Source: a phage
NCBI GenBank assembly: GCA_011839185.1
Contig: GCA_011839185.1_3918.1
DNA: 64,000 nt
Strand: one strand, 5' to 3'
Positions within the stretch are counted from its first letter, which is position 1, and every line of letters begins with the position of its first letter. The position numbers and the translations under genes are program-made. The notes beneath the pieces are model-generated. The model was not told the DNA's origin. It ran no database searches and was given only the letters and a program-made list of their open reading frames with translations. This document shows, in pieces, positions 5,587 through 58,704 of this stretch.

Positions 5587-5820
5587 TCATATCAACTCCA
5601 GAATATCAATACGTTCACCCTTAAGGACTCCTGTACGGTCTCTTGCAATCTTACCGTCAACGATAAGGATATGCGCGACCTTTAAAGCCTCACGATTAAA
5701 ACCTTTTAAGAACTTGCTAGGCATCACGACAATGGACATCTCCTGAATCAACTCTGGAGTATAGCAATTGTCATGAAGTTGCTGAATAACGTCTGCAAGT
5801 GTCATTTTTGGTGTCTCCAA
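5587..5820 (-). CDS. hypothetical protein (77 aa)
   Basis: ORF only. Confidence 0.35.
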   Translation of the reverse strand: METPKMTLADVIQQLHDNCYTPELIQEMSIVVMPSKFLKGFNREALKVAHILIVDGKIARDRTGVLKGERIDILELI

Positions 5821-6062: not shown

Positions 6063-6614
6063 TCAACTTAGTTTTGCAAACTCTCCGTGGAGTTTAATAG
6101 CAGCTTCACAGTAAGCTTTATGGGCTTCTTCTGGTGTGTCAAACATACCAAGATGATAGTTTTTACCTTGTAAACGTATCATTGCTCGAAACCTTTTACT
6201 TATCTTCTGTACACCTTTTGGCAACCCAGATGGGGACTCTCTTGACCGATTGCAAGAGTTTTGTGAAGCTGTACAAACCCTTAAATTCAAGTACCTATTG
6301 TCCCAACCGTCCCCATTCTTATGGTCAACCTGTAAGGTTTTATCAGGTAGATATCCATCCATATACAAGATAACTAAACGATTTGCTTGGTAACCCCTTC
6401 CATCAATCAGCAACTGAACTGACTTGTGTCCATCAGTATTTGTTCTGTAGTTTCCAGCCCTCTTACCTCCAAATCTAGAGTTAAAGTTTGCATTACCTTC
6501 TCTAAACTTCCAAGTAAAGACCCCTGTTTCGGGGTCGTAGTCCAATAGCTCCTTAAGACGAATTTCTGTAATCATTTCAACACCATCAATGTACTTCCAA
6601 CCAGCTCTTACCAA
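6063..6614 (-). mobile_element. HNH homing endonuclease with AP2-like DNA-binding domain
   Basis: HNH motif LQVDHKNGDGWDNRYLNLRVCTASQNSCN; C-terminal EEAHKAYCEAAIKLHGEFAKL (AP2-like); sits immediately 3' of the DNA polymerase gene. Confidence 0.65.
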
Positions 6615-9285
6615 CCTTACCTGTGCCAGTTACAAGCGTCTCACTCTTCAAACCTAAATTCTTAGATGCCTGACCATACATCCAGTCAGTTATGGCTTTA
6701 ACTTCTTGAGTCATACTTTCTGGGCATTCCCAACTGTTTTCATCGTGGTATGCCAGCAAAAGCCTAGCACCAATTGCTGGTTTTCGTCCATTTAATTTTG
6801 TCAATCCTTCTTCACATGCTCTTCTACAAGCAAGGTTAATTGCCTCATTTTGAATCTGAGCCTCTGAACCCATGAGCAAATAATTCAATAACTTATGTGG
6901 AGATTTACACCACAACCAAGCTCCAGCAACCTTTACAAAACCCCCTTTAGAGATTGCAGCAGTCTTACCAAACACCTCTTCAAGTGCCTTTTTAGTTGCT
7001 TTGTAGTCAGCTTCCAAGTCATCTAGCAGCTTCTTAATTTTAGGCAAACGAATAAAGTAAGTCTGTTTAGTCAGCGCACCTTCCTGAGTAGTTGCAGCTT
7101 TAATCGTCTTAGCAAACTTTTCATCACCTGCACCGAACAGTAGTGCATAGATACCATTCTTAGCTTTCTTACGACCTTTGCTAATCTCATGAAGAAGATT
7201 CTCATCCTGAGTAGCTCGACAAGTCAAGATATCCTGCTCATCATTCAAGCTAAAGTAAATACTGTTCAGTGTATGTGCATCAGTCCCTGAATAGACAACG
7301 TACAGGTCATTCTCAGAGTCATAGCGAAGGTACTTATCAATCTCTGGGTTTAGGTACTCATCAAAATGTTTGCAGTAATAGCGTCCATCTTCTTGACGAA
7401 TAAACTCAATCTCTTCTTTACCTTGCGTTACCGCTTTGGTGAAGTCTTTGTCACCCATAAAGTTACAAAGGAGAACTAGCTGGGCTGAGTTCATGTCTAC
7501 AGAGACAACATTAGTACCTTCTTCACAAATCCACACTGCCCTCATTGGTTCCCCATAGACAGCAGCACCAGACGGTACGTTTACAATACCATATTGTGTC
7601 ATACGTCCAGTTGAAGTACCAAATACCATTGCACCAGCACTAAGGCGACCATCTGGACGAATCTGGTTCAGCCAACCTTTCTCGTCATCCTTTGAGTTCT
7701 CAATAGTTCTGCGTCTGTGCATCAAAGTGTAGTACTTAGCAATCTTCTGTCCAAGCTCACCTTCAATCGTATCATAAGATGATTCAGTAAGTTTTGGTGA
7801 AGTACGGATTAAGCAAGGTTCAAGCAAATCTGTGTATTTCTTCACGGACCAGTTATGCTCAATGTACTGAACACCTTCATGTTCAACATAACTCAAACCA
7901 CACCGCTCAACCATTTCCTGCCACTTAGGATGTTTTGTAATCATCTTTTTATTGTCTTTGAAACGACAAACTTTGACAGGGCGACCATCTGAGTCTTTCT
8001 TGTAGTTCCAGTCATCTGGAATCCAACCAACTGATTTCAAGTAGTCTTTAACAACTGCTACCTGAGTCATGCGAGAAACTTCGAACTCAATTGGTGTATA
8101 TGGTGCATCAATCAAACCTGTGTAGCGACTTGACTCAAGTTCAAAGTGGTTAACAACGTGACTGTTATAGTACTTCACAGTTTTGACTGTTTTCACTGGC
8201 TTCCAGTCTTTGCATTTCTTACCAATCTTTGCATTCAACTCATTGCAAATTGCACGAGCATCCTTCATTGCTACAAAGCCTTCCTTGTACTCTTCACCAG
8301 TTACAGAGTTGGTTGGGGTGTAGCAATTTCTCTTTTCAATGTTAAAAATCTTTGTAGTTGGCTTACCAAATGGCTTGATTTCGTATGTCTGCATCTCACC
8401 GTTACGTACCTGCTGACGGTACTTTGTCTTAGGGTACTTGGTAATTCTCTTCAGTCCATCTGCATGACCGAATGCTTCAACATACTCATTCCAAGCTTTT
8501 GCAAACTCTTCTCCAGTGACTTTACCTTTGGTCTTAATAGTTGGAGGTAGATGTGGTTCAACCTCTGAAGCAAGCTCATTAGTCAACTTGTCAAGCTCCT
8601 TTACATGGAACTCCATAAGCTCCTTATCAGCTTTCCAACCATTGATAGCTTGTTGACTCATCCAGAAAGATGTTTCTTTAGCTCGCATATAGGTTTCATA
8701 AGTATCTATGCCACACTTCTTAAGCTTGAGATACTCATTATCAAGTGCCCGTTTAGTTTTGGCGTTAATACGGATATCTTCTACAACACGAGTGAAGATT
8801 TCTGCATTCCACACACCCCAATGTTCAATCTCTGGTTTACGAACACCAACACGAGCACCCCATGCAGCCAAGCCATGAGCACCTTTATAGCCTTTTGGAG
8901 TTGGCCTATCCATCCACTGAACACGAGACTGAATAAGAGAATCCTGAAAGAAATTACTCCACGGCTTACATTTTGGATTATCAAAGTTCCATAAATCCGG
9001 TGCAATGTGATTGAAAACCCACCAGTCATAACCGAGGCCATTATGGATACAAAGTCGTTTTGCCTTTAACGCAAACTCAACACCTTCACGTAAACCACCC
9101 TTAATGTACTTAGTGTACTTGTGACCGAGGATAGGCTCATCTGTAAAGACCCATACAGGTGGCTCTTCATCGTCAGATTTATAGTCTGCAAAAGCCATTA
9201 CGTGAACTTTAGTGAACTCAAGGAGTAAACCATCAGTTTCTGTATCACCAACTAAATGTAAGTTTTTAAAATCTACGTTTTCCAT
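6586..9285 (-). CDS. DNA polymerase, family A, with 3'-5' exonuclease domain
   Basis: Exo motif VGDTETDG; pol motifs resembling A (VSVDMNSAQL), B (RKKAKNGIYALLFGAG) and C (YHDENS); start set at MENVDF with GGGAG RBS. Confidence 0.9.
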   Translation of the reverse strand: MENVDFKNLHLVGDTETDGLLLEFTKVHVMAFADYKSDDEEPPVWVFTDEPILGHKYTKYIKGGLREGVEFALKAKRLCIHNGLGYDWWVFNHIAPDLWNFDNPKCKPWSNFFQDSLIQSRVQWMDRPTPKGYKGAHGLAAWGARVGVRKPEIEHWGVWNAEIFTRVVEDIRINAKTKRALDNEYLKLKKCGIDTYETYMRAKETSFWMSQQAINGWKADKELMEFHVKELDKLTNELASEVEPHLPPTIKTKGKVTGEEFAKAWNEYVEAFGHADGLKRITKYPKTKYRQQVRNGEMQTYEIKPFGKPTTKIFNIEKRNCYTPTNSVTGEEYKEGFVAMKDARAICNELNAKIGKKCKDWKPVKTVKTVKYYNSHVVNHFELESSRYTGLIDAPYTPIEFEVSRMTQVAVVKDYLKSVGWIPDDWNYKKDSDGRPVKVCRFKDNKKMITKHPKWQEMVERCGLSYVEHEGVQYIEHNWSVKKYTDLLEPCLIRTSPKLTESSYDTIEGELGQKIAKYYTLMHRRRTIENSKDDEKGWLNQIRPDGRLSAGAMVFGTSTGRMTQYGIVNVPSGAAVYGEPMRAVWICEEGTNVVSVDMNSAQLVLLCNFMGDKDFTKAVTQGKEEIEFIRQEDGRYYCKHFDEYLNPEIDKYLRYDSENDLYVVYSGTDAHTLNSIYFSLNDEQDILTCRATQDENLLHEISKGRKKAKNGIYALLFGAGDEKFAKTIKAATTQEGALTKQTYFIRLPKIKKLLDDLEADYKATKKALEEVFGKTAAISKGGFVKVAGAWLWCKSPHKLLNYLLMGSEAQIQNEAINLACRRACEEGLTKLNGRKPAIGARLLLAYHDENSWECPESMTQEVKAITDWMYGQASKNLGLKSETLVTGTGKVGKSWLEVH

Positions 9286-9345
9286 TTTTACTCCCTCTAA
9301 AAGCATTAACCTCATACATTACTGCAAAAAATTATAAAAAGCAAG

Positions 9346-9374
9346 TTGACAATGTACTTGACAAGGTGTTAATC
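9346..9374 (+). promoter_or_regulatory. sigma70-like promoter candidate
   Basis: TTGACA, 17-nt spacer, TTAATC; in divergent intergenic region before rightward block. Confidence 0.35.
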
Positions 9375-9542
9375 TTTGCGAAGTGGGTTTTTACTTAAAA
9401 GGTTACTTAACAGTTTAACTATACAGATACTTTAAAACTCTTAAAAGATTATTTAATAGCTTTTAAAAAGCTTTAAAGTATAACGTATAGAATACGTTAA
9501 GATAAAAGATTAAAACTTAATAGTTACTTAAAAGAGGCTTAC

Positions 9543-9965
9543 ATGCAGAAAATGTTTGTTCACCCAGACATAGCTGACTTTGTTAGAGCTTTGCAGAAGT
9601 TGGAAGAACTTGACATTGCTGCTCAACGGGAATATGCTCACCATCACAGGAGAATGGTCGATATACAACATGAAATAGAGTTGTCTGAAAACTATGAAGA
9701 TGACTTAAAATGCTCTGTGTTTGAGCATATGAAAGATGTTGCTACAGCGAGACGTAAAGCTAAAGACACAGTTGCTTTACTAGATTCTCTTAAAAAGAGG
9801 TTGCAAAGTGGTACAGACCTGTGTAATCTAGCATCACTGATTAACGATGTTGAAACTTCTTGGGATAGGCACTATTATCCACGTTCTGAAAAGACACTTG
9901 ACTTTTCTTCATCTGAAAACTTAAAATGTTCTAGAAAGAAACTTAACCAACTGAGAGAGAAATAA
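9543..9965 (+). CDS. hypothetical protein (140 aa)
   Basis: First ORF of rightward block. Confidence 0.45.
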   Translation: MQKMFVHPDIADFVRALQKLEELDIAAQREYAHHHRRMVDIQHEIELSENYEDDLKCSVFEHMKDVATARRKAKDTVALLDSLKKRLQSGTDLCNLASLINDVETSWDRHYYPRSEKTLDFSSSENLKCSRKKLNQLREK

Positions 9966-9966
9966 T

Positions 9967-11579: not shown

Positions 11580-11780
11580 ATGAAGATGAGAGTAAAAGAC
11601 AATTTTAAAGTTATTGACCACCGTTTAGTGGAACTCTCATCTCTTTCCAATGAGGTAATGATTGAACGTCTTAAGAGAGTTGAATCACGAAGGAAAGAGA
11701 TTGCAGATGAAATTCATGAACTGGACAAGATTGAAAATGGATTGAAGGCAGAACTACAACGAAGAGGTGCTAATGTCTAA
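11580..11780 (+). CDS. hypothetical protein (66 aa)
   Basis: ORF only. Confidence 0.35.
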   Translation: MKMRVKDNFKVIDHRLVELSSLSNEVMIERLKRVESRRKEIADEIHELDKIENGLKAELQRRGANV

Positions 11781-13758
11781 AGGTCGTAAATTGAAAGAGG
11801 CTGGTCAGTTTGTTGGTCATTGCGCATGTCCACGTTGTGGTTCATCAGATGCTGGTTCAATCTATCACCATGACGATGATTCTTATTCAATGACTTGCTT
11901 TAGTTGTAACAAAGGTTTCCCAGAGTGGGATTTTGATAAAGGACAAATCGTGAGCACTTATTCTACTGGTTCAGACAATAAAAACCGTACTTTCCGTGGA
12001 ATGGATTTAGACGATGTAAAAGAAAACCTAGAAGCAATGGACTTGAAAGATAGGAAGATTCCTGCAAAAGTCCTTGAACGCTTAGGTATCAAGGTTGACA
12101 TTGATAGTGACGGTGAAATTGATGCGCACTTCTATCCAACTTACAAACGTAATGAAGATGGTAAGCTAGAACATGTTGGCTACCGTGTTCGTCACCGTTA
12201 CCCAGAAGACCATCCAAAAGAGCACCTACGTGGTAAGCTAAAAGACTTTTCTGGTGGTGTTGGAGACATTAAAGGTGAACTAGCAATGTTCGGTTCATGG
12301 ATTGCTCCAGAAGGTGGTAACCGTCTATTCATCTGGGAAGGTGAGATGGAATGTGCGACAGCAATCTATATGACTTCTTTGGCGATTAAAGATAAGTCTC
12401 GTCGTAAGAATTACTGTCACGTATCTGTTCCGTCAGGTGCAAACATTAAGTCTATCAAAGACAACTATCAGTACATCACATCATTTGATGAGATTTACTT
12501 GTGCTTTGATAACGATGAAGCAGGTGCTAAAGCTACCAAAGAGGCTGCTGGTATCCTACCTATTGAGAAGGTTCGTTTATTCCAGTATCCAGAAGGTGTA
12601 AAAGACCTTAACGAATGGTGGACAAAGTTCTATAAAGAGAAAGACACAGTTCTTGAAGGGTTTAAGCAGCGTATCTACAATGCGCCCCGTTACTGCCCTG
12701 CTGGTATCAAGAACTTCGCAGATGGTTTTGAGGCAATGAAGAATCGTGGTCAGATTCCATTGATTCCTTTCCCAGAATCTTTCGGAGATTTGAACAGGCT
12801 GACTTATGGCGGTTATGGTTTAGGTGAGATTACAACTCTGGCAGCACCATCTTCAGTGGGTAAATCAGCATACACTCGTGAAATGATTTATACTGCTTGG
12901 AAGGATACCGATTACAATATTGGTGTAATTCCGGTCGAAGATACCTATGAAGAGTTGATGGAGATGCTTTGTGCAATCCACCTGAGCAAGCAGATTTCTG
13001 AGATTCCTTATGACGAACGTGATTGGGATGAATTGAAGGAAGCACACACAGAACTATCTAAAGGTCGTCGTATCCACATCGTAGACCATCAAGGGGCAAT
13101 TGACCAAGATAACTTGCTGGAGTTTGTTGACTATCTTGTTAACAGTTTAGACTGTAAGATTATTATTCTTGACCCTATTACGTTGGCTCTGTCACGTTCT
13201 GATACGGATGAAGAGGAAGTATTGTCTGAACTATTGCGTCGTTGCAAACGCTACCAGTATGCACAGGTAAACGTCTGTCACGTTCGTAAGAGTGCAGGTG
13301 GTCAGAAAGCTAACTCTGAAGGTGGGGATATCTCTGAAGAGGATATTAAAGGTTCTGGTGCGTATTTCCAGATTTCTATGAACAACATTCTGTTAATGCG
13401 TAACAAGGTTGACCCAGACCCTGTTAAGAAAAACTTGACAAAAATCAAGTTAACTAAATGTCGTCGTCACGGTAAGTCAACGGGTATTGCTGGTCATACT
13501 TGGTACAATCCAGATACAGGACGTCTCATCAAAGCATCTGGTTGTGGGGTTGACATTGATGGTGCAGCAGAAAATATTCGCCAACAGTTTGGTATTGGCG
13601 AAGCTGAAGACCATTACGATGACTCTTTGCCACATTATGAGGATGAAGTGTTTGACCGTGAGACTGGTGAAGTCTATACTGAAGAGCAGCGTCAAAGCTC
13701 AACGATTCCACCTGTATTAAGTGAGGATGCAGATGACTACCCATTCGAAACTGAGTGA
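11767..13758 (+). CDS. bifunctional DNA primase-helicase (T7 gp4-like)
   Basis: N-terminal Zn ribbon CPRCG...CFSCN; TOPRIM-like FDNDEAG; helicase Walker A LAAPSSVGKS. Confidence 0.85.
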   Translation: MLMSKGRKLKEAGQFVGHCACPRCGSSDAGSIYHHDDDSYSMTCFSCNKGFPEWDFDKGQIVSTYSTGSDNKNRTFRGMDLDDVKENLEAMDLKDRKIPAKVLERLGIKVDIDSDGEIDAHFYPTYKRNEDGKLEHVGYRVRHRYPEDHPKEHLRGKLKDFSGGVGDIKGELAMFGSWIAPEGGNRLFIWEGEMECATAIYMTSLAIKDKSRRKNYCHVSVPSGANIKSIKDNYQYITSFDEIYLCFDNDEAGAKATKEAAGILPIEKVRLFQYPEGVKDLNEWWTKFYKEKDTVLEGFKQRIYNAPRYCPAGIKNFADGFEAMKNRGQIPLIPFPESFGDLNRLTYGGYGLGEITTLAAPSSVGKSAYTREMIYTAWKDTDYNIGVIPVEDTYEELMEMLCAIHLSKQISEIPYDERDWDELKEAHTELSKGRRIHIVDHQGAIDQDNLLEFVDYLVNSLDCKIIILDPITLALSRSDTDEEEVLSELLRRCKRYQYAQVNVCHVRKSAGGQKANSEGGDISEEDIKGSGAYFQISMNNILLMRNKVDPDPVKKNLTKIKLTKCRRHGKSTGIAGHTWYNPDTGRLIKASGCGVDIDGAAENIRQQFGIGEAEDHYDDSLPHYEDEVFDRETGEVYTEEQRQSSTIPPVLSEDADDYPFETE

Positions 13759-36109: not shown

Positions 36110-36133
36110 CAGGCTCCTTCGGGAGCCTTTTTC
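36110..36133 (+). terminator. rho-independent terminator
   Basis: AGGCTCC TTCG GGAGCCT followed by TTTTTC. Confidence 0.55.
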
Positions 36134-36151
36134 ATTTCAGGAGATTGTTAA

Positions 36152-36930: not shown

Positions 36931-37257
36931 ATGCAGATTAATGGAAGAGACTTTGTAGCCGTTTACTACGAGAAAGATAAAGAGGTTGGTGTAGCACAAG
37001 TAACTTACGGCAATGGTAAGTGGCTATATGGAACAATCGCAGTAGTTGGAACAAGAAGTGACACAAAAACTTTTAAAGATTGTGTTGACCTTCTTGAAGA
37101 ATCCATTCAGAATCATTGGTGTCTGATATGGATGACTGACAACGAAGTGATAGAACGCTTCAAAAAGATTGATATCAACATTGATAGTATTGAGCATGTT
37201 GATTTATACGAGCTAACTGAGAAGGTAAACTATGAAAGTAATACTAGCCAGAGATAA
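36931..37257 (+). CDS. hypothetical protein (108 aa)
   Basis: ORF only. Confidence 0.4.
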   Translation: MQINGRDFVAVYYEKDKEVGVAQVTYGNGKWLYGTIAVVGTRSDTKTFKDCVDLLEESIQNHWCLIWMTDNEVIERFKKIDINIDSIEHVDLYELTEKVNYESNTSQR

Positions 37258-37459
37258 AAAGACACGAAAGCTTATCAGGTCAGCAGTGTTCATTGGACGA
37301 AATGAGGTCATCCCATTTACAGCAAATGATGTGATAGCTTACAGGAAGAACTTAGTATTCACTGACTGCTTACGTGGCTTCATCTCTGAACCATTGGAAG
37401 ACTTTAAAAGTCGTTGTGGTAAAGGTATCATCATTCAAGAGGCAATTATTCATGGCTGA
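37232..37459 (+). CDS. hypothetical protein (75 aa)
   Basis: ORF only. Confidence 0.3.
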   Translation: MKVILARDKKTRKLIRSAVFIGRNEVIPFTANDVIAYRKNLVFTDCLRGFISEPLEDFKSRCGKGIIIQEAIIHG

Positions 37460-37652
37460 CTTCTGTAAAGATTGTTCTATCGAAATGTTCGGACGTGATA
37501 CAGGTGACTTAAAAGGTCTTATCACTGAAGATGACTTTAAAGCTGGTTATGCAATGCCAGTAATCTGTGAAGGTTGTGGGTGCATCTGGGTAGACCACGA
37601 AGGGCAGCGTGTAAAACCTTCAGAAGATAAAGAATCTTGGGAGAGATGTTAA
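37452..37652 (+). CDS. small zinc-ribbon-like protein
   Basis: MADFCKDCS...CEGCGC cysteine pairs; start set at internal ATG. Confidence 0.35.
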   Translation: MADFCKDCSIEMFGRDTGDLKGLITEDDFKAGYAMPVICEGCGCIWVDHEGQRVKPSEDKESWERC

Positions 37653-38438
37653 ATGGGTATTGTAAAAATCATCAATGGCGATATCTTTGCCGCATTTGAT
37701 AAAGGTAAGTTTGACATTATTGGTCACGGTTGCAACTGTATGAATTTAATGGGTGCAGGTATCGCTGACAAGATTTCTAAACTTTACCCAAAAGCATATG
37801 AGACAGATACAGAAGTCTATCTATATGCAGGTGGCATAGGTCACAAACCCTGTGAAAATTTACTGGGTAATTTCTCTGTAGCACGTTTAAAACAAGGTCG
37901 TATAGCTAACCTTTACACTCAGCTTAAGACTGGTAAAGATGCCCGATACAGTGCTTTAGAGTCATCTTTGAAACAGCTTAACAGATACTGTGAAGTTAAT
38001 CAGTTGAAGAAAGTTGGTTTACCTATGATTGGTGCAGGTATAGGTGGGCTGGACCCTCAAGCTGTCACAGTTATCATCAATCAGGTGATGAAGAGTGTAG
38101 ATGTTTATCTGTATGTCTATGAAGGAGAGATGTACCACAAGTTACGCTCAGGTTGGAAGAACTACTGTGAACCAGAATACTTTGCAGGTGTAGCAGTGTT
38201 CACGGATAACGCAGTTACCCTCTTCAGACGAAGAAAAGGTAAGATACATCAAAGTAACCCTCCGGTTGAAAGGATGTCTCTAAGTAACGCTCTAGTTACC
38301 CACCTGTCGAAGAGCAATCACAGAATAGCTGTGACATTTGGTAGTGATGCAGATGCTTACATCTATGCAAGAACTGATGAGGATATCGAGGCAATTTTCT
38401 CATCACCGGAAGTTACCTTCTTAGACGCAAAGAACTAA
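37653..38438 (+). CDS. macro-domain (ADP-ribose binding/processing) protein
   Basis: INGDIF...DIIGHGCNCMNLMGAGIA and LPMIGAGIGG resemble macro-domain signature regions as recalled from YmdB/MacroD. Confidence 0.65.
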   Translation: MGIVKIINGDIFAAFDKGKFDIIGHGCNCMNLMGAGIADKISKLYPKAYETDTEVYLYAGGIGHKPCENLLGNFSVARLKQGRIANLYTQLKTGKDARYSALESSLKQLNRYCEVNQLKKVGLPMIGAGIGGLDPQAVTVIINQVMKSVDVYLYVYEGEMYHKLRSGWKNYCEPEYFAGVAVFTDNAVTLFRRRKGKIHQSNPPVERMSLSNALVTHLSKSNHRIAVTFGSDADAYIYARTDEDIEAIFSSPEVTFLDAKN

Positions 38439-38439
38439 G

Positions 38440-38760
38440 AAACTCTGTAGAATATTCACAATAGACTAAGCCTTTCTTATCTGGTAAATTTTTCAGGTAA
38501 GGGGGGCTTTTTCATTTCAGGATTGTGCAGGTAGAGTTCTGTATAGAAATCTGTAGAGAAAATTTTGAACTCCAAAGGGAAAATTCATTTTCAAGCTGTG
38601 CAGGTAATCTCCAAAGAGCTTTTTCATTTTCAAAACGTGCAGACCCCGCTCAGGTCGGGCAAGAAAAATCATTTTAGAATCGTGCAGGTAGGTTTTTATA
38701 GAGAGTCAGACCAACCCCTCTCCCCCTCTTACTCCCCCTCTCCCCAAAAGTCAAGAGAAA
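38440..38760. repeat. direct repeats of a CATTTTCA...GTGCAGGTA box plus a C/T-only tract
   Basis: At least four copies (near 38505, 38585, 38625, 38672) and cccctctccccctcttactccccctctcccc at 38716-38748. Confidence 0.55.
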
Positions 38761-38865
38761 AATTTGTAGTGGATTGAAAAATAATTCTTGATTTGTGTTT
38801 TGTTTTGTGGTAGTCGTGCGCGCCCGTTCATTTCCCAACCTTACAAAAATATTTAATAAAAACCG

Positions 38866-38894
38866 TTGACACGCCAAACAAGTTTACGTACTAT
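38866..38894 (+). promoter_or_regulatory. sigma70-like promoter in front of the small-gene array
   Basis: TTGACA, 17-nt spacer, TACTAT. Confidence 0.45.
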
Positions 38895-38943
38895 TTGCAT
38901 CAGACGGGCAAGCTAGCCACTTCCTAAACTGGAGAATCTAAAA

Positions 38944-39135
38944 ATGGCATCAAGAAAAATCAAAGTCGGTGATGAGGTTAACGTTAAGTATGAGCACTCT
39001 CATAAAATGTTAACTATTCGCTCTTACAAGGTTTATCAGGTGGAAGCTATCCACGAAGACGGTACATTTTCCCTAAAAGGACATAGCGAACGTTTCCCTG
39101 CTGAATTGTTCGAAAAATGGAGTACTAAAAAATGA
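38944..39135 (+). CDS. small hypothetical protein (63 aa)
   Basis: Preceded by conserved CTAAACTGGAGAATCTAAAA-ATG context. Confidence 0.45.
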   Translation: MASRKIKVGDEVNVKYEHSHKMLTIRSYKVYQVEAIHEDGTFSLKGHSERFPAELFEKWSTKK

Positions 39136-39338
39136 TTTACAGCCGTGAATTGATGGTTACAACTAACGTTAACACAAAGGTAAAACGTTTTTACATGCAA
39201 ATCTGTGGCGTATGGTCCAGAATATCAGAAGCCGACTATTGCAACTATGTAGAAACGGCAATCAACTCGAATTGCTACCTTACAAGAAACACTAAGAATT
39301 TTACAAGGCAGACAGCGATTTACTACTACGATAAATAA
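39132..39338 (+). CDS. small hypothetical protein (68 aa)
   Basis: ORF overlapping previous stop. Confidence 0.4.
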   Translation: MIYSRELMVTTNVNTKVKRFYMQICGVWSRISEADYCNYVETAINSNCYLTRNTKNFTRQTAIYYYDK

Positions 39339-39424
39339 AGTACTTTACAAGGGGCTTATAGTTCGATAGAGTAAGCCCCAGATAAAGAGCTTTACTAACT
39401 AACCTTAAACTAGGAGATTCTAAA
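39338..39424. repeat. intergenic cassette family A (stem-loop plus conserved box plus RBS)
   Basis: AAGTACTTTACA-GGGGCTTA..TAAGCCCC-AGATAAAGAGCTTTAC...CTAAACTAGGAGATTCTAAA; copies also near 39806, 40186, 41258, 42050, 43320. Confidence 0.7.
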
Positions 39425-39805
39425 ATGGCTTATCGTGCACCGAAATTCATCAACAAAGACAACTTTCGCAACGTACTGGAGAAGGCACTTGATGAAAAAT
39501 TTAAAGGTAACATTATTATTGTTCACTCATTCAATTTTAAGTATGACATCAACGGGAATAAAATCAACCATTACACGGCAACAATGATAGACGGTACGTT
39601 ATCAAGTGAAAAAGCCGTACTGAATGCACTTGCTGGACGTGGTAAAAACCTGATAAGCTGCAATAAGAGACGTTATCAAGGTGGCGCATATGGTTATGAT
39701 GATGCTGTTTACCATCTTGAAAATATGGGCTATTCAGTGGAGAAAGCTGGAGCGTCTCAAATAATTGGTAGTGATGGTTATGTGACAATATTCAAAATTA
39801 ACTGA
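39425..39805 (+). CDS. small hypothetical protein (126 aa)
   Basis: ORF with conserved upstream cassette. Confidence 0.45.
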   Translation: MAYRAPKFINKDNFRNVLEKALDEKFKGNIIIVHSFNFKYDINGNKINHYTATMIDGTLSSEKAVLNALAGRGKNLISCNKRRYQGGAYGYDDAVYHLENMGYSVEKAGASQIIGSDGYVTIFKIN

Positions 39806-39893
39806 TAAAGTACTTTACAAGGGGCTTATAGTTCGATAAAGTAAGCCCCAGATAAAGAGCTTTACCACTCAATCCTAAATTGGAGATTCTAAA

Positions 39894-40184
39894 ATGGCTA
39901 TTATCAAAAACGTTGTAATTCCTGCAAAAACTCGTGATGACGCTCGCATCATGGCGAAAAAGTTAGGCGGGAAAGTGGTTGACAATGGAAAACAATCTGC
40001 TGTAAGATGGGGCGTAAAGGCTGATAAACAGTTGAAGCTAAAAAATTCACCGATAAACCTTTTTACATGTGTAAGCACTATCGGGAAGACAAATGTATAC
40101 ACGAAAAAGGCATATATTAGACGCATAACCTTAACATCCCCCATTCGTACAATGAGAAGTTATGCAAAGCTGAAAATTAACTGA
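39894..40184 (+). CDS. small hypothetical protein (96 aa)
   Basis: ORF with conserved upstream cassette. Confidence 0.45.
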   Translation: MAIIKNVVIPAKTRDDARIMAKKLGGKVVDNGKQSAVRWGVKADKQLKLKNSPINLFTCVSTIGKTNVYTKKAYIRRITLTSPIRTMRSYAKLKIN

Positions 40185-40272
40185 TAAAGTACTTTACAGG
40201 GGGCTTAAAAGTTGATATCTTAAGCCCCAGATAAAGAGCTTTACCACTAAATCCTAAACTGGAGATTCAAAA

Positions 40273-56423: not shown

Positions 56424-56497
56424 CTCTGTTTAGCTCAGCTTGGTAGAGCGTTCCGTTTGGGGCGGTAAGGCCGGAGGTTCAAGTCCTCCAACAGAGA
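56424..56497 (+). tRNA. tRNA-Pro (anticodon TGG)
   Basis: Cloverleaf by eye: acceptor ctctgtt/aacagag, anticodon loop tttgggg, T-loop ttcaagt, CCA encoded. Confidence 0.75.
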
Positions 56498-56507
56498 CCA
56501 AATTAAT

Positions 56508-56582
56508 GTTCCAGTGGACAAAATGGTAAAGTCACCACTCTTTCAAAGTGGATATTTGAGGGTTCAAATCCCTTCTGGAACG
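56508..56582 (+). tRNA. tRNA-Glu (anticodon TTC)
   Basis: Acceptor gttccag/ctggaac, anticodon loop ctttcaa, T-arm gaggg-ttcaaat-ccctt, CCA encoded. Confidence 0.75.
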
Positions 56583-56676
56583 CCAGTTTTGACAGAAGAC
56601 CAATTACAGCAAACTTAATCTTATTCATCTGAAGGTAAATCGGACAAAGAAGAGATTTGGTCTGGTCATTAAGAAT

Positions 56677-56750
56677 TGCGGGTATAGAGAAAGGGCGTCT
56701 CACATGTCTCATTAGCATGGTATCGGCAGGTTCGACTCCTGCACCCGCCT
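56677..56750 (+). tRNA. tRNA with CAT anticodon (Met or Ile-lysidine type)
   Basis: Anticodon loop ctcatta; 1-72 mismatch; T-arm gcagg-ttcgact-cctgc; CCA encoded. Confidence 0.6.
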
Positions 56751-56836
56751 CCAAATTTACAGAAGACCGTTTACAGCAATATTTATTAAATTTTTAGCGG
56801 AAAAATTGAAAGATACGGTCTGGTAATACTAAACAT

Positions 56837-56910
56837 GGTTAGGAAGCACATAAGGTATGTGCGGTCGCCTGTTAAGCGAATGGCACAGGGTTCGAATCCC
56901 TGACTAACCG
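56837..56910 (+). tRNA. tRNA-Asn (anticodon GTT)
   Basis: Anticodon loop ctgttaa; T-arm caggg-ttcgaat-ccctg; CCA encoded. Confidence 0.7.
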
Positions 56911-56982
56911 CCAAATTTAGGAGAGAAGCGATTGCTCACCGATTTGTAAGGTGCAAGTCCTTAGCCTGAATAGAAATCAAAT

Positions 56983-57067
56983 GTGTCGTTATCCCGTAGA
57001 TGGTAGCGGTGGGGACTGTAAATCCCTTGTCATTGAGACTCGGTAGGTTCGACTCCTACACGGCACA
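56983..57067 (+). tRNA. tRNA-Tyr (anticodon GTA), long variable arm
   Basis: 85 nt; anticodon loop ctgtaaa; acceptor gtgtcgt/acggcac; CCA encoded. Confidence 0.7.
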
Positions 57068-57075
57068 CCAATAAA

Positions 57076-57150
57076 GGTTATGTAGTTTAATTTGGTTAAA
57101 ATACTCCCCTGTCACGGGAGATGATGAGGGTTCAAATCCCTTCGTAACCG
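57076..57150 (+). tRNA. tRNA-Asp (anticodon GTC)
   Basis: Anticodon arm ctccc-ctgtcac-gggag; T-loop ttcaaat; CCA encoded. Confidence 0.7.
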
Positions 57151-57298
57151 CCAATTTTGAGAGGGCTATTTAGCCCCTCCCTTAAAGGGTTCTTACGAGT
57201 ATCCTTTAAAGGAGCAGAAGACCAAATACAGCAAGTTACTTAAAATTTCAAGCCAATTTAATTTTGAAAAATTTAAAACTTGGTCTGGCTCAACAAAT

Positions 57299-57432
57299 TT
57301 ACAGAAGACCGTTTACAGCAAAACTTAAACAATCTATTTCTCGGTAAAGAAAAGGCGAAGGTTCGATTCCTTCACTCGGCAGATGTCGAGTTGGTGTAAT
57401 GGTAGCACTTAAGATGATAAACAACGGTCTGG
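57299..57432 (+). ncRNA. candidate structured spacer RNA with tRNA-like T-arm (unit 4 of a repeated family)
   Basis: Conserved 5' box CAGAAGACCGTTTACAGCAA pairs with 3' ACGGTCTGG; contains canonical T-arm gaagg-ttcgatt-ccttc (57357-57373) without matching 5' acceptor, and a D-arm-like agttggtgtaatggtagcac. Confidence 0.4.
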
Positions 57433-57581
57433 TAATTATCTTTGTAGATAAGTTATTAAGCTTACCTGTGAGTATGCGACCACAAAGGGTGAAAGGGTAA
57501 ATTCTAGATTTAAACCTAAAAAGGCACATCGCTACAGACCTTAAGCAAGTCTGGGTAGCTTATCTACAAAGATAATTTAAT

Positions 57582-57654
57582 GGAAGTGTAGCAGAATGGT
57601 GATGCGGCAGACTTTTAATCTGACAGGCGATGGGTTCGAATCCCTCCACTTCTA
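57582..57654 (+). tRNA. tRNA-Lys (anticodon TTT)
   Basis: Anticodon loop cttttaa; acceptor ggaagtg/cacttct; weak T-stem; CCA encoded. Confidence 0.65.
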
Positions 57655-57735
57655 CCAAATTCACCCTTAACTGAGAAACACCTGCGCGGCTGGAAACACC
57701 CACTCAACAGTTTCTCTAACTAGGGTACTTATTCT

Positions 57736-57809
57736 GGTTCAGTCGCAGATAAGGTAATGCAAGGGTCTCATAAGCCCTATGAATGTGGGTTCGATTCCCA
57801 TCTGAACCT
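57736..57809 (+). tRNA. tRNA with CAT anticodon (Met or Ile-lysidine type)
   Basis: Anticodon arm agggt-ctcataa-gccct; acceptor ggttcag/ctgaacc; CCA encoded. Confidence 0.7.
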
Positions 57810-57828
57810 CCAATTCGTTGGTGATATT

Positions 57829-58314
57829 ATGTTTTGTGCTAATAAAGATTGTGACAACAAAGCCGTTAAAGGTGGAAAGTATTGTTCACGCTCTTGTGCT
57901 GCAAGGGTAAACAACAAGAGTCATCCAAAAAGAAGACAAGAAGGCTCTTGTCATTCATGTGGAAAGCAGACACCAAAATCAAGAAAGTATTGTGATGAAT
58001 GTATTTCAAATGGTATTCTGAAACAATACAAAAACCCCGATGAAGAAAAGAAAGCGAAGTCACAACACGTTAAAAAGTCTCGTGACAAACTTAAGAGGGT
58101 TTTAGTTGATTACAAAGGTGGTTGTTGCTCAATTTGTGGATACAATAAGTGCATAAAGGCTTTAGAGTTTCACCACTTAGACCCTAATACAAAGGACTTC
58201 ACAGTAGGACAAAAACACTTCTCTATAGAGGTAATGAAGTCTGAAGTTGATAAGTGTGTATTACTGTGTGCAAATTGCCACAGAGAGGTACACGAAGGGG
58301 TAACAAAGCTGTGA
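57829..58314 (+). mobile_element. HNH endonuclease nested between tRNA genes
   Basis: C-terminal CANCHREVHEG HNH/Zn motif and multiple CxxC pairs; start reset to ATG at 57829 (track start 57757 lies inside the tRNA). Confidence 0.6.
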
Positions 58315-58380
58315 AAGCACATATGGATGTGCATTCGGCTGATAACCGAAAGGCAGAAGGTTCGAATCCTTCTCACAGTA
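58308..58380 (+). tRNA. tRNA-Ile (anticodon GAT)
   Basis: Anticodon arm ttcgg-ctgataa-ccgaa; T-arm gaagg-ttcgaat-ccttc; 5' end overlaps the HNH stop codon. Confidence 0.7.
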
Positions 58381-58398
58381 CCAATTTCAATAAAGTTG

Positions 58399-58427
58399 TT
58401 GACATTGAGATGTGACTACTTTATAGT
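58399..58427 (+). promoter_or_regulatory. sigma70-like promoter inside tRNA cluster
   Basis: TTGACA, 17-nt spacer, TATAGT. Confidence 0.45.
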
Positions 58428-58630
58428 AACCTTAGTTTTCGTTGCGTAGCGTCTATTTTGCAAATTTAAAATAAATGCAAACGACAATGTTTTTCTGGCA
58501 GTAGCTTGATAGGCTAAACACCAGTGAGGTCTTCCAATCCCTCATCAAAGAATTTGGCGTACTCGCCCACGGTATGATTAATAAGGTGGGCATCTTTAAG
58601 GGCTTTCTAAGAGAGTCTTTAAAGATTAAT

Positions 58631-58704
58631 GCACCCTTAGTTCAACTGGACAGAGCAAATGACTTCTAATCATTGAGTTACAGGTTCGAATCCTGTAGGG
58701 TGTG
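58631..58704 (+). tRNA. tRNA-Arg (anticodon TCT)
   Basis: Anticodon arm aatga-cttctaa-tcatt; acceptor gcaccct/agggtgt; CCA encoded. Confidence 0.75.

Follow-up and report, generated by a model that had tools for sequence, protein, structure and literature searches.

Cis-acting arrays of short repeats are a known feature of non-coding phage DNA. The origin of phage lambda comprises four iterons and an A+T-rich, strand-biased segment, iterons are also found in plasmids, and the origins of lactococcal phages are repeat-rich and non-coding; the known phage operators (phi29 p4, P1 C1, lambda OL/OR) overlap or abut promoters and are usually either dyad-symmetric or present at more than one locus. 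An array which, judged from its sequence, appears to be a new member of this iteron- or operator-like kind was found in a 64,000-nt stretch of Felixounavirus DNA (contig GCA_011839185.1_3918.1; the whole stretch is referred to as the window). It consists of four direct repeats, termed boxes, in a gene-free gap of 505 nt (38439–38943), bounded by a macro-domain gene on the left and by the first gene of an array of small genes (38944–39135) on the right. The boxes are unique in the genome, conserved throughout the subfamily, non-coding and without conserved RNA structure. They probably serve, at the level of DNA, as sites for a sequence-specific DNA-binding protein; initiation of replication of the iteron type is the role ranked first for them, a tentative assignment. 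Literature searches yielded no description of the array. In the genome paper of Felix O1, temporal regulation and the passage of many terminators are stated not to be understood, and the direct repeats listed there are only those of at least 24 bp, which lie elsewhere in the genome (PMC3185647).

All four boxes lie on the plus strand and follow the pattern TCATTTY-N6-GTGCAG with the same internal geometry, the half-sites TCATTTY and GTGCA(GGT) being about 12 bp, that is about one helical turn, apart from centre to centre. With core starts at 38512, 38585, 38624 and 38669, the boxes are spaced 73, 39 and 45 nt from start to start and fall within 176 nt. The motif enrichment test that had been proposed in an earlier sequence-only reading of the window returned four exact matches where 0.01 are expected from dinucleotide shuffles, and none of 100 shuffles reached four. 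On a weight matrix of the core the boxes score 31–33 bits; the next best site in the 64 kb, which lies within coding sequence, scores 15 bits. With a 41-nt matrix nothing of 12 bits or more was found elsewhere in the window, nor in the 25 kb of genome that are absent from the window and were supplied by the close relative KP869100. Restriction of the boxes to one locus argues against their being a general class of promoter or terminator. As sigma-70 promoters they were rejected, since by eye they match the consensus at no more than 8 of 12 positions and the promoter scan made no call; compared by eye with the sites of CRP, Fis, IHF, sigma-54, sigma-E, sigma-32, OmpR, TorR and PurR and with boxA and Ter sites, they match all of them poorly.

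The direct repeats had been recognized in the sequence-only reading as copies of CATTTTCA..GTGCAGGTA; the array as such stands, with four boxes 39–73 nt apart, but the full string is true of one box only (R1 has CATTTCA, R4 has CATTTTAG, and R3 ends in GTGCAGACC). The exact 9-mer GTGCAGGTA occurs five times in the window versus 0.46 expected. Its copies at 37753 and 38032 were rejected as parts of the system; both encode Gly-Ala-Gly-Ile within the macro gene, and relatives differ there by synonymous changes. The repeat unit is also longer than had been seen: Moogle-like phages contain three successive units of the form CTCCAAAGRG-N4-TTCATTTTCAA-N3-GTGCAGGT, and because in these phages CTCCAAAG precedes R4 as well, this is considered the ancestral unit. 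R4 is orthologous to box 3 of Erwinia phages, reading GGTCGGGCAAGAAAAATCATTTT in the window and GGTCTGGCAAGAAAAATCATTTT in locus L041 (loci are designated by L-numbers). Strings of CTGTAGA related to the second small repeat between R1 and R2 (Table 1) are found at 38444 and 38764. Just 5′ of the A+T-rich stretch of the downstream promoter there is a degenerate half-site (38827–38845) which scores below 9 bits on the box matrix; at this position GTTTCATT is kept in the Felix and Moogle groups. Apart from the gap, the terminator which follows the gene of a 159-aa protein (36110–36142) is trailed by the box-1 string TTTTTCATTTCAGGA, an exact match of 16 nt, without the GTGCAG half-site; since this string also trails a terminator there, the 5′ half of the box can be said to resemble a terminator tail.

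Table 1. Features in and around the gene-free gap (positions in the window; core, the TCATTTY-N6-GTGCAG part of a box).
Feature	Position	Strand	Remarks
Macro-domain protein gene	37653..38438	+	261 aa; Pfam Macro, E=1e-7
Intrinsic terminator, hairpin and T-run	38468..38509	+	terminator scan; ends the long plus-strand operon
Box R1	38509..38533, core 38512-38530	+	TTTTCATTTCAGGATTGTGCAGGTA; 32.6 bits; in most related loci scanned
Second small repeat TCTGTAGAGAAA, 2 copies	38538..38561	+	between R1 and R2; Tandem Repeats Finder; repeat families D5 and D11
Open reading frame, 70 aa, TTG start	38565..38777	+	by-product of stop-free repeats, not a gene
Inter-box block CTCCAAAG	38570..38577	+	5′ part of the R2 unit; invariant in the alignment of 21 sequences
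Box R2	38582..38606, core 38585-38603	+	AATTCATTTTCAAGCTGTGCAGGTA; 31.3 bits
Inter-box block CTCCAAAG	38609..38616	+	upstream part of the R3 unit; conserved
Box R3	38621..38645, core 38624-38642	+	TTTTCATTTTCAAAACGTGCAGACC; 31.2 bits
Box R4	38666..38690, core 38669-38687	+	AAATCATTTTAGAATCGTGCAGGTA; 32.0 bits
Pyrimidine-rich tract CCCCTCTCCCCCTC-TTA-CTCCCCCTCTCCCC	38715..38745	.	31 nt: 22 C, 8 T, 1 A (central)
A+T-rich conserved block AAAAGTCAAGAGAAAAATTTGTAGTGGATTGAAAAATAATTCTTGA	38746..38793	.	96.5% mean column identity, 21 sequences
Degenerate box-like half-site TTCATTTCCCAACCTTACA	38827..38845	+	repeat family D2, 74% identity; doubtful status
Sigma-70-type promoter TTGACA-17-TACTAT	38866..38894	+	10 of 12 consensus matches; annotated promoter in MZ726791

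The region 37600–39400 matches 293 phage records, nearly all of them Felixounavirus or other Ounavirinae, at up to 92% identity. Starting from the macro protein, 29 related loci were found in IMG/VR, all of which contain all or nearly all of the boxes, including a group with macro proteins that are only 64–71% identical. Conservation was quantified on an alignment of 21 distinct sequences; mean column identity is 98.8% in the half-sites, 85.7% in the N6 spacer and 89% in the DNA between the boxes. In the divergent group the non-coding stretch is 70–89% identical to the window, the macro gene 67–74% at the DNA level. The order macro gene, terminator, three to six boxes, C-rich tract and sigma-70 promoter recurs in Felixouna-, Moogle/Susp-like and Kolesnikvirus phages and in a distant lineage of 88-kb contigs, and in all lineages examined the left-hand neighbour of the array is invariably the macro gene. 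Box spacing is 75–77, 39–41 and 45 nt in the Moogle-like phages. In Kolesnikvirus (Erwinia phages) the macro gene and the terminator are followed by four boxes of the form TTTTTCATTTT-N6-GTGCATAG, spaced 37, 37 and 39 nt, then by the C-rich stretch CGCCCACCCTCCCCTCTACC and, about 200 nt further on, by a TTGACT-17-TATATT promoter. The 88-kb lineage (L071) has five or six boxes after a macro gene whose product is 37% identical and lacks the C-terminal extension, the GTGGATAG variant among them, and the Si3-like lineage (L061, L084) has three. Thus, one of the two half-sites depends on the genus, being GTGCAGGT in some and GTGCATAG or GTGGATAG in others.

When viral contigs were scanned with the box pattern, matches came almost only from contigs of 84–94 kb, the size of Ounavirinae genomes. 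A double-box pattern gave nothing but unrelated repeats in metagenome-assembled genomes among 185,579 species genomes, and BLAST of the array against plasmids and E. coli genomes gave no similarity. One match of another kind is an unrelated 10-kb viral contig (L063, IMGVR_UViG_3300018080_002802), in which two 50-nt tandem units with TCATTTT-N6-GTGCAG (6250–6350) sit 5′ of a 151-aa reading frame and of a 543-aa reading frame whose translation reads like a large terminase; the likeness of these repeats to the box is probably a coincidence, and they were not accepted as relatives of the boxes; they may be a pac region. Locus L011 (IMGVR_UViG_3300045988_004180) is chimeric: after CAGGTCGGG, past box 3, it switches to the 5′ end of E. 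coli mukB (minus-frame translation MIERGKFRSLTLINWNGFF...GAGKSTTMAAFVTALIPD), probably through mis-assembly.

In Felix O1 the gap corresponds to 7916–8422, and its boxes begin at 7989, 8062, 8101 and 8146. No gene is placed there any longer in the reference record, whose ORF numbers skip from 13 to 15. The gap of a fully annotated relative (506 bp) is its second largest gene-free region after the 1.6-kb terminal region. Both the macro gene and the TTGACA-17-TACTAT promoter are where the sequence-only reading had put them, and the promoter serves the first gene of the terminal array of small genes. The terminator, annotated as such also in MZ726791, KT184316 and KT184315, is intertwined with the array, its 3′ arm and T-run overlapping R1 and doubling as the 5′ part of that box. 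Its 3′ arm is conserved to 98.5% versus 86.6% for the 5′ arm (21-sequence alignment); the pairs survive via one-sided changes, and Moogle-like phages have rebuilt the 5′ arm (AGCCCTCC...GGAGGGCT). Because a terminator lies immediately upstream and the promoter downstream points outward, the array should be untranscribed unless there is read-through. Just 5′ of the macro gene, a small protein with four cysteines is encoded (37452–37652; MADFCKDCS...CEGCGC...), its stop codon overlapping the macro start; it has no Pfam match, looks zinc-ribbon-like on reading and could bind nucleic acid.

Translation of the array can hardly be its purpose. The open reading frame 38565–38777 had been suspected of being an artefact of the repeats, and it is one: its frame contains a stop codon in L005 and a 2-nt deletion in L017 (phage wV8), is shifted between boxes by the 41-nt spacing in L025–L029, starts with TTG without a clear ribosome-binding site, and other frames on both strands are equally open. 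Substitutions fall on the three codon positions 20, 18 and 21 times, that is without periodicity or codon-position bias. A small protein with three internal repeats would agree with the R2–R3 and R3–R4 distances (39 and 45 nt), which are multiples of three, and with a frame that is open in both alleles of the gap described below; a functionless remnant of a tandem duplication of the terminator tail would agree with the GCTTTTTCATTT which R1 and R3 share with that tail and which suggests such an origin. A neutral leftover, however, would not keep its half-sites about 99% identical across genera, and either reading has next to nothing left in its favour. Nor does the gap look like a structured RNA: an Rfam scan of 37000–40000 (E<=10) gave chance-level matches only, none of them in the gap, ToxI included, and, the terminator apart, the consensus folds predicted for the two strands are weak: compensatory changes support 1 of 52 and 2 of 37 pairs, and the energies, for alignments exceeding 300 columns, are −27 and −10 kcal/mol.

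Between R4 and the promoter two further elements are found. The tract at 38715–38745, which had been described as 33 nt of C and T only, in fact measures 31 nt and contains one A. Allowing one interruption, it is the longest purine/pyrimidine run of the window (31 nt; shuffles reach 21 on average and 29 at most), and it is the sole canonical G-quadruplex (G4) motif in the 64 kb, detected at 38715 by a regular expression that asks for three or more G (or C) in each of four runs separated by loops of 1–7 nt; any G4 motif occurred in 14 of 200 shuffles. It also contains a perfect 14-nt homopyrimidine mirror repeat of the H-DNA type. By sequence definition, the tract qualifies both for H-DNA and, through its four C-runs, for an i-motif (plus strand) and a canonical G4 (minus strand). 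Relatives keep the four C-runs but not the mirror symmetry, their arms varying from 5 to 14 nt; if anything is selected in the tract, it would seem to be richness in G/C-runs and length rather than the H-DNA mirror. At least four independent assemblies break within the C/G-run tract (the end of MT446388, the end of MK482690, L006, and L008 at a Nextera adapter), which suggests either that sequencing or assembly of the tract is difficult or that assembly graphs are split by mixtures of alleles.

Two alleles of equal length fill the interval from R4 to the A+T-rich block. The other one (GGTGGGTGCAGGTGGGGATGTCGCC...) is unrelated to the C tract, has five runs of at least two G on the opposite strand, that is, it is rich in G-runs on the plus strand, and contains an additional GTGCAGGT half-site; since it replaces the C tract in about two thirds of the Felixounavirus records, the C tract must be dispensable or exchangeable. 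The A+T-rich block itself is strongly conserved across a set of sequences which takes in phages whose macro genes are only 67–74% identical (DNA), and no promoter was called in it (38746–38793) by the scan. Its distance from R4 is the same in both alleles, and this equality of length suggests a spacing constraint that ties the boxes to the block.

Taken together, conserved half-sites with a freer spacer, single orientation, uniqueness, a genus-specific half-site and a transcription-quiet setting fit an array of protein-binding sites best, and because one half-site changes between phage genera, the binder is most probably encoded by the phage; protein binding, phage origin of the binder and a role in replication are what we infer from this anatomy. 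It is the iteron pattern that the boxes display: asymmetric direct repeats within the size range of iterons (about 17–25 bp), four in the window and three to six in relatives, in one orientation at a unique locus. As in known iteron origins, the repeats are short and non-coding, adjoin an A+T block and a purine/pyrimidine-biased tract, and diverge in sequence with the phage lineage; unlike in those, their spacing is irregular (37–77 nt), a strong unwinding element is not evident and no recognizable initiator gene lies next to or around them. In this reading, a phage-encoded protein would occupy the three to six boxes and form a nucleoprotein complex that also involves the A+T block at 38746–38793. 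The terminator on the left would shield the array and the promoter on the right would fire away from it, leaving a transcription-quiet island; binding, together with negative supercoiling generated by the outward promoter, might then open either the A+T block or the C/G-run tract, and the single-stranded DNA so exposed could allow loading of the T7-gp4-like primase-helicase encoded at 11767–13758. The replisome is indeed T7-like, this protein having Toprim and DnaB_C domains (Pfam), and helicases of the T7 gp4 type load on pre-opened DNA. Replication was ranked first on account of the iteron look, the A+T block, the structure-prone tract, supercoiling from the outward promoter and the helicase type.

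Several observations weigh against such an origin. No marked unwinding element is evident in the gap, where 60-bp duplex stability does not exceed z=+1.75 (A+T block, z=+1.4), and the 15 least stable 60-bp windows all lie outside it (e.g., 46228, 46590 and 9407–9530). The boxes are spaced irregularly, are not helically phased and differ in spacing between lineages (73–77/39–41/45 versus 37/37/39 nt). The opening aid which the C tract would provide in this scheme is absent from most GenBank Felixounavirus records, 64 having the C allele and 140 the other one, and while all C-allele lineages including the Moogle/Susp-like ones keep four C-runs, Kolesnikvirus has only three. Of the ten proteins scanned, those flanking the array have no initiator or DNA-binding Pfam domain, although an initiator may be encoded elsewhere, and close relatives do not share the same first gene downstream. 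Cumulative GC skew shows no inflection at 38.5 kb, a result uninformative on replication because the skew tracks transcription, and the searchable literature yields no experimental data (transcript, origin or footprint) for the gap. Finally, the palindrome at 9427–9481 and the terminal region 45380–46700 are equally good or better origin candidates. The palindrome is A+T-rich with 27-nt arms and lies, together with CTTAAAAG repeats, in a divergent gene-free gap of very low duplex stability (9316–9966) beside the DNA polymerase gene (6586–9315, minus strand).

The region to the right of the array bears on several of the other possibilities. A module of at least 13 small genes (38900–45120), each preceded by a near-identical ribosome-binding module, TCCTAAAYTGGAGATTCWAAAATG, is bordered on its left by the boxes. 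The module is cassette-like, its first gene having a sigma-70 promoter and a 5′ hairpin, and some relatives carry an insertion of about 480 bp. It is followed by a gene-free region of 1.3 kb (45380–46700), likely the packaging and/or origin region, which holds a terminal repeat homologue (45599–46178), is dense in repeats of TTAACA and (C/T)TGTTA(A)G and has the two least stable 60-bp duplexes of the window (46228, 46590) just inside it; the terminal repeat homologue places the boxes 7.1–7.7 kb inward from the right end, a distance of about 8% of the genome. Kolesnikvirus and the distant L071 show the same succession of boxes, small genes over several kb and a TTAACA/TGTTAA-rich terminal region, the distance from the boxes to the terminal region being 5.1, 6.2, 7.1, 7.2 or more than 8 kb in different lineages. 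In L071 (reverse complement, 5600–5760), eight TTAACA follow immediately after the boxes, and a second TTAACA/TGTTAA cluster, similar to the Felix terminal-repeat region, is found 7.5 kb past the first (joined L071 and L088, 13000–13950); these clusters may link the boxes to the repeats of the terminal region.

Control of this module is the role ranked second, a possibility about which we are doubtful: in an extension of the operator or switch that the sequence-only reading had put forward, an early or middle phage protein on the boxes would regulate the terminal module of small genes or insulate it, either by looping to the weak half-site at 38827–38845 and so repressing or activating the 38866 promoter, or as a boundary at which a roadblock, the terminator and the G4/C-rich (rut-like) tract halt read-through from the 28-kb operon upstream. 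What holds of the original proposal is that non-coding boxes under strong purifying selection fit an array of protein sites; the C/T tract cannot be essential to any switch (140 versus 64 records). The array lies exactly between two signals, the terminator that closes the long plus-strand operon and the small genes' first promoter, and R1 overlaps the terminator 3′ arm and T-run, a part under extra constraint. Distant lineages differ little in how far the last box lies from the −35 hexamer, with 176 nt in the window (38690 to 38866), about 200 nt in Kolesnikvirus and about 215 nt in L071, the last value coming from a TTGCGC-N17-TATACT site read by eye only; the degenerate box-like site lies about 20 nt upstream of the hexamer, and a C-rich, G-poor transcript segment has the look of a Rho-loading site, which counts for a boundary. 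In having several protein sites of about 20 bp between a terminator and an early promoter, the locus resembles the multi-site operators of phi29 p4, P1 C1 and lambda OL/OR. The differences are that the boxes, at 176–355 nt upstream of the −35 hexamer, neither overlap nor abut the promoter, that they are asymmetric direct repeats and not the dyads typical of repressors, and that they occupy a single locus, although several target loci would be usual for a phage regulator (no second one was found in the window and the 25 kb of KP869100) and at least 13 further genes of the array, with their near-identical ribosome-binding module, have no boxes nearby. Moreover, the proximal half-site scores below 9 bits and most Felixounavirus records lack the C tract. 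The anatomy agrees no less well with a role as an origin or in another DNA transaction than with one as an operator. Unlikely, in turn, is a function of the array as RNA, produced by read-through or from an unrecognized promoter, whether as a ToxI-like decoy, a sponge for an RNA-binding protein or an RNA directed against the ribosome-binding TGGAGATTC module. The boxes are all oriented as the flanking genes, and as tandem non-coding units of 37–45 nt in a phage genome they fall within the range of type III antitoxin (ToxI-like) repeats, which are near-identical head-to-tail units of 34–45 nt; the hosts commonly contain ToxIN plasmids, the ToxI repeat being present on 75 plasmids (49 from E. 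coli, 12 from Salmonella). The repeat searched for was the 36-nt Pectobacterium ToxI repeat, found exactly or nearly so on these mostly mobilizable plasmids, from which it follows that type III abortive-infection systems are common in the host species. In addition, the best duplex of the gap with the consensus early-gene ribosome-binding module has −16.9 kcal/mol, within the best 2% of plus-strand windows, and AATCTCCA at 38606–38613 is complementary to TGGAGATT; in Moogle-like phages this match shows no co-variation, and with so many ideas tried a 2% tail carries little weight. Unlike antitoxin arrays, the units are unequal (39, 45 and 73 nt) and only 62–78% identical, Tandem Repeats Finder makes no call of the box array, a terminator lies directly upstream and the scan found no promoter before box 1. 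The local score against ToxI (17, versus 14.2 ± 2.3 in shuffles) is at chance level, 76 of 500 shuffles being as good, and Rfam matches, plasmid or E. coli BLAST similarity and a conserved fold are all lacking.

Less probable still is a checkpoint of DNA entry, analogous to the injection stop of T5, at which a host membrane-associated protein (DnaA has been proposed for T5) or an early phage protein on the boxes would pause delivery or anchor the DNA, so that the terminal module, by analogy a set of host-takeover genes, might reach the cell or be expressed first, as an instalment of its own, with the remaining chromosome becoming available only later; we regard such a two-step scheme as very improbable, too. 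T5 transfers 7.9% of its DNA in the first step and has a conserved, repeat-rich, non-coding injection-stop region (bioRxiv 10.1101/866236); here, likewise, subfamily-conserved non-coding repeats lie about 8% from the end, where a terminal module of many small early genes with promoters has its inner border, are better conserved than the neighbouring genes and in some lineages include DnaA-box-like strings. The half-site GTGCATAG or GTGGATAG of Kolesnikvirus and L071 is the reverse complement of CTATGCACA or CTATCCACG, which match the DnaA box TTATNCACA at 7–8 of 9 positions with the variable base on its N. The half-site of the window, ACCTGCACA, matches at only 6 of 9, although, with DnaA as the ligand, one would expect phages of E. 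coli and Salmonella to retain the consensus of their hosts; a cluster of DnaA boxes in this phage was rejected, as DnaA-like sites are not enriched (184 in the window versus 203 expected, with a single one-mismatch site in the gap). The T5 region also extends over 1.2–1.6 kb within a terminal repeat of 10 kb and contains palindromes and paired consensus DnaA boxes (bioRxiv 10.1101/866236), whereas the array consists of about 180 nt of direct repeats, 7 kb away from a terminal repeat of about 0.6 kb, large inverted repeats or palindromes of the T5 type are absent, the distance to the terminal region is not fixed, and the searchable literature has no report of two-step injection for these contractile-tailed phages. 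The non-coding, repeated array at the edge of an accessory, probably counter-defence module and beside a macro-domain gene might also be a decoy that titrates a host defence or other DNA-binding protein, in the manner of the aba element, a short non-coding DNA element with essential direct repeats which acts as DNA against the abortive-infection protein BstA (PMC8585504). No similarity to host or plasmid sequence was found, and conservation deep into the subfamily at a fixed position looks like a core cis function, so we give a decoy very little credence. A genome terminus or packaging (pac/terminase) site, finally, is suggested by repeated boxes, which are typical of small-terminase binding sites, and by assemblies that end in or near the gap (L006, L008, L026, MT446388, MK482690, KC139526), and has practically no probability left. 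The ends of MT446388 (TH10) overlap by about 77 nt, an artefact of circular assembly, L008 ends in a Nextera adapter, and contig breaks cluster at the C tract and the allele boundary, pointing to difficulties of sequencing or assembly and to strain mixtures. Direct terminal repeats were determined as 581 bp for Pr103Blw with PhageTerm (PMC8303462) and shown experimentally to be 608 bp in the Felix-like phage UAB_Phi87 (PMC4837284). The annotated repeat of Pr103Blw aligns to 45599–46178, 7 kb away from the boxes, and as a place of the physical ends the gap is already refuted. Some chance, lower than that of either of the two leading roles, is left for a function outside all those listed. Elsewhere in the window, 26 tRNA genes are clustered on the plus strand (56424–62203), as is usual in Felixounavirus.

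In the favoured reading, that of a DNA-level array of protein-binding sites, what looks like an empty gap in the annotation gains importance. Gene callers repeatedly place spurious "hypothetical proteins" across it. Felix O1 and its relatives, classic Salmonella-typing phages, are now common in cocktails for therapy and biocontrol and as engineering platforms such as Bas63; when genomes are minimised or re-wired, the gap should not be treated as disposable spacer. As a delimited element of about 180 nt the array could be deleted, transplanted or used as bait and would thereby offer an experimental handle on the regulation of these phages and on the protein that binds to it.

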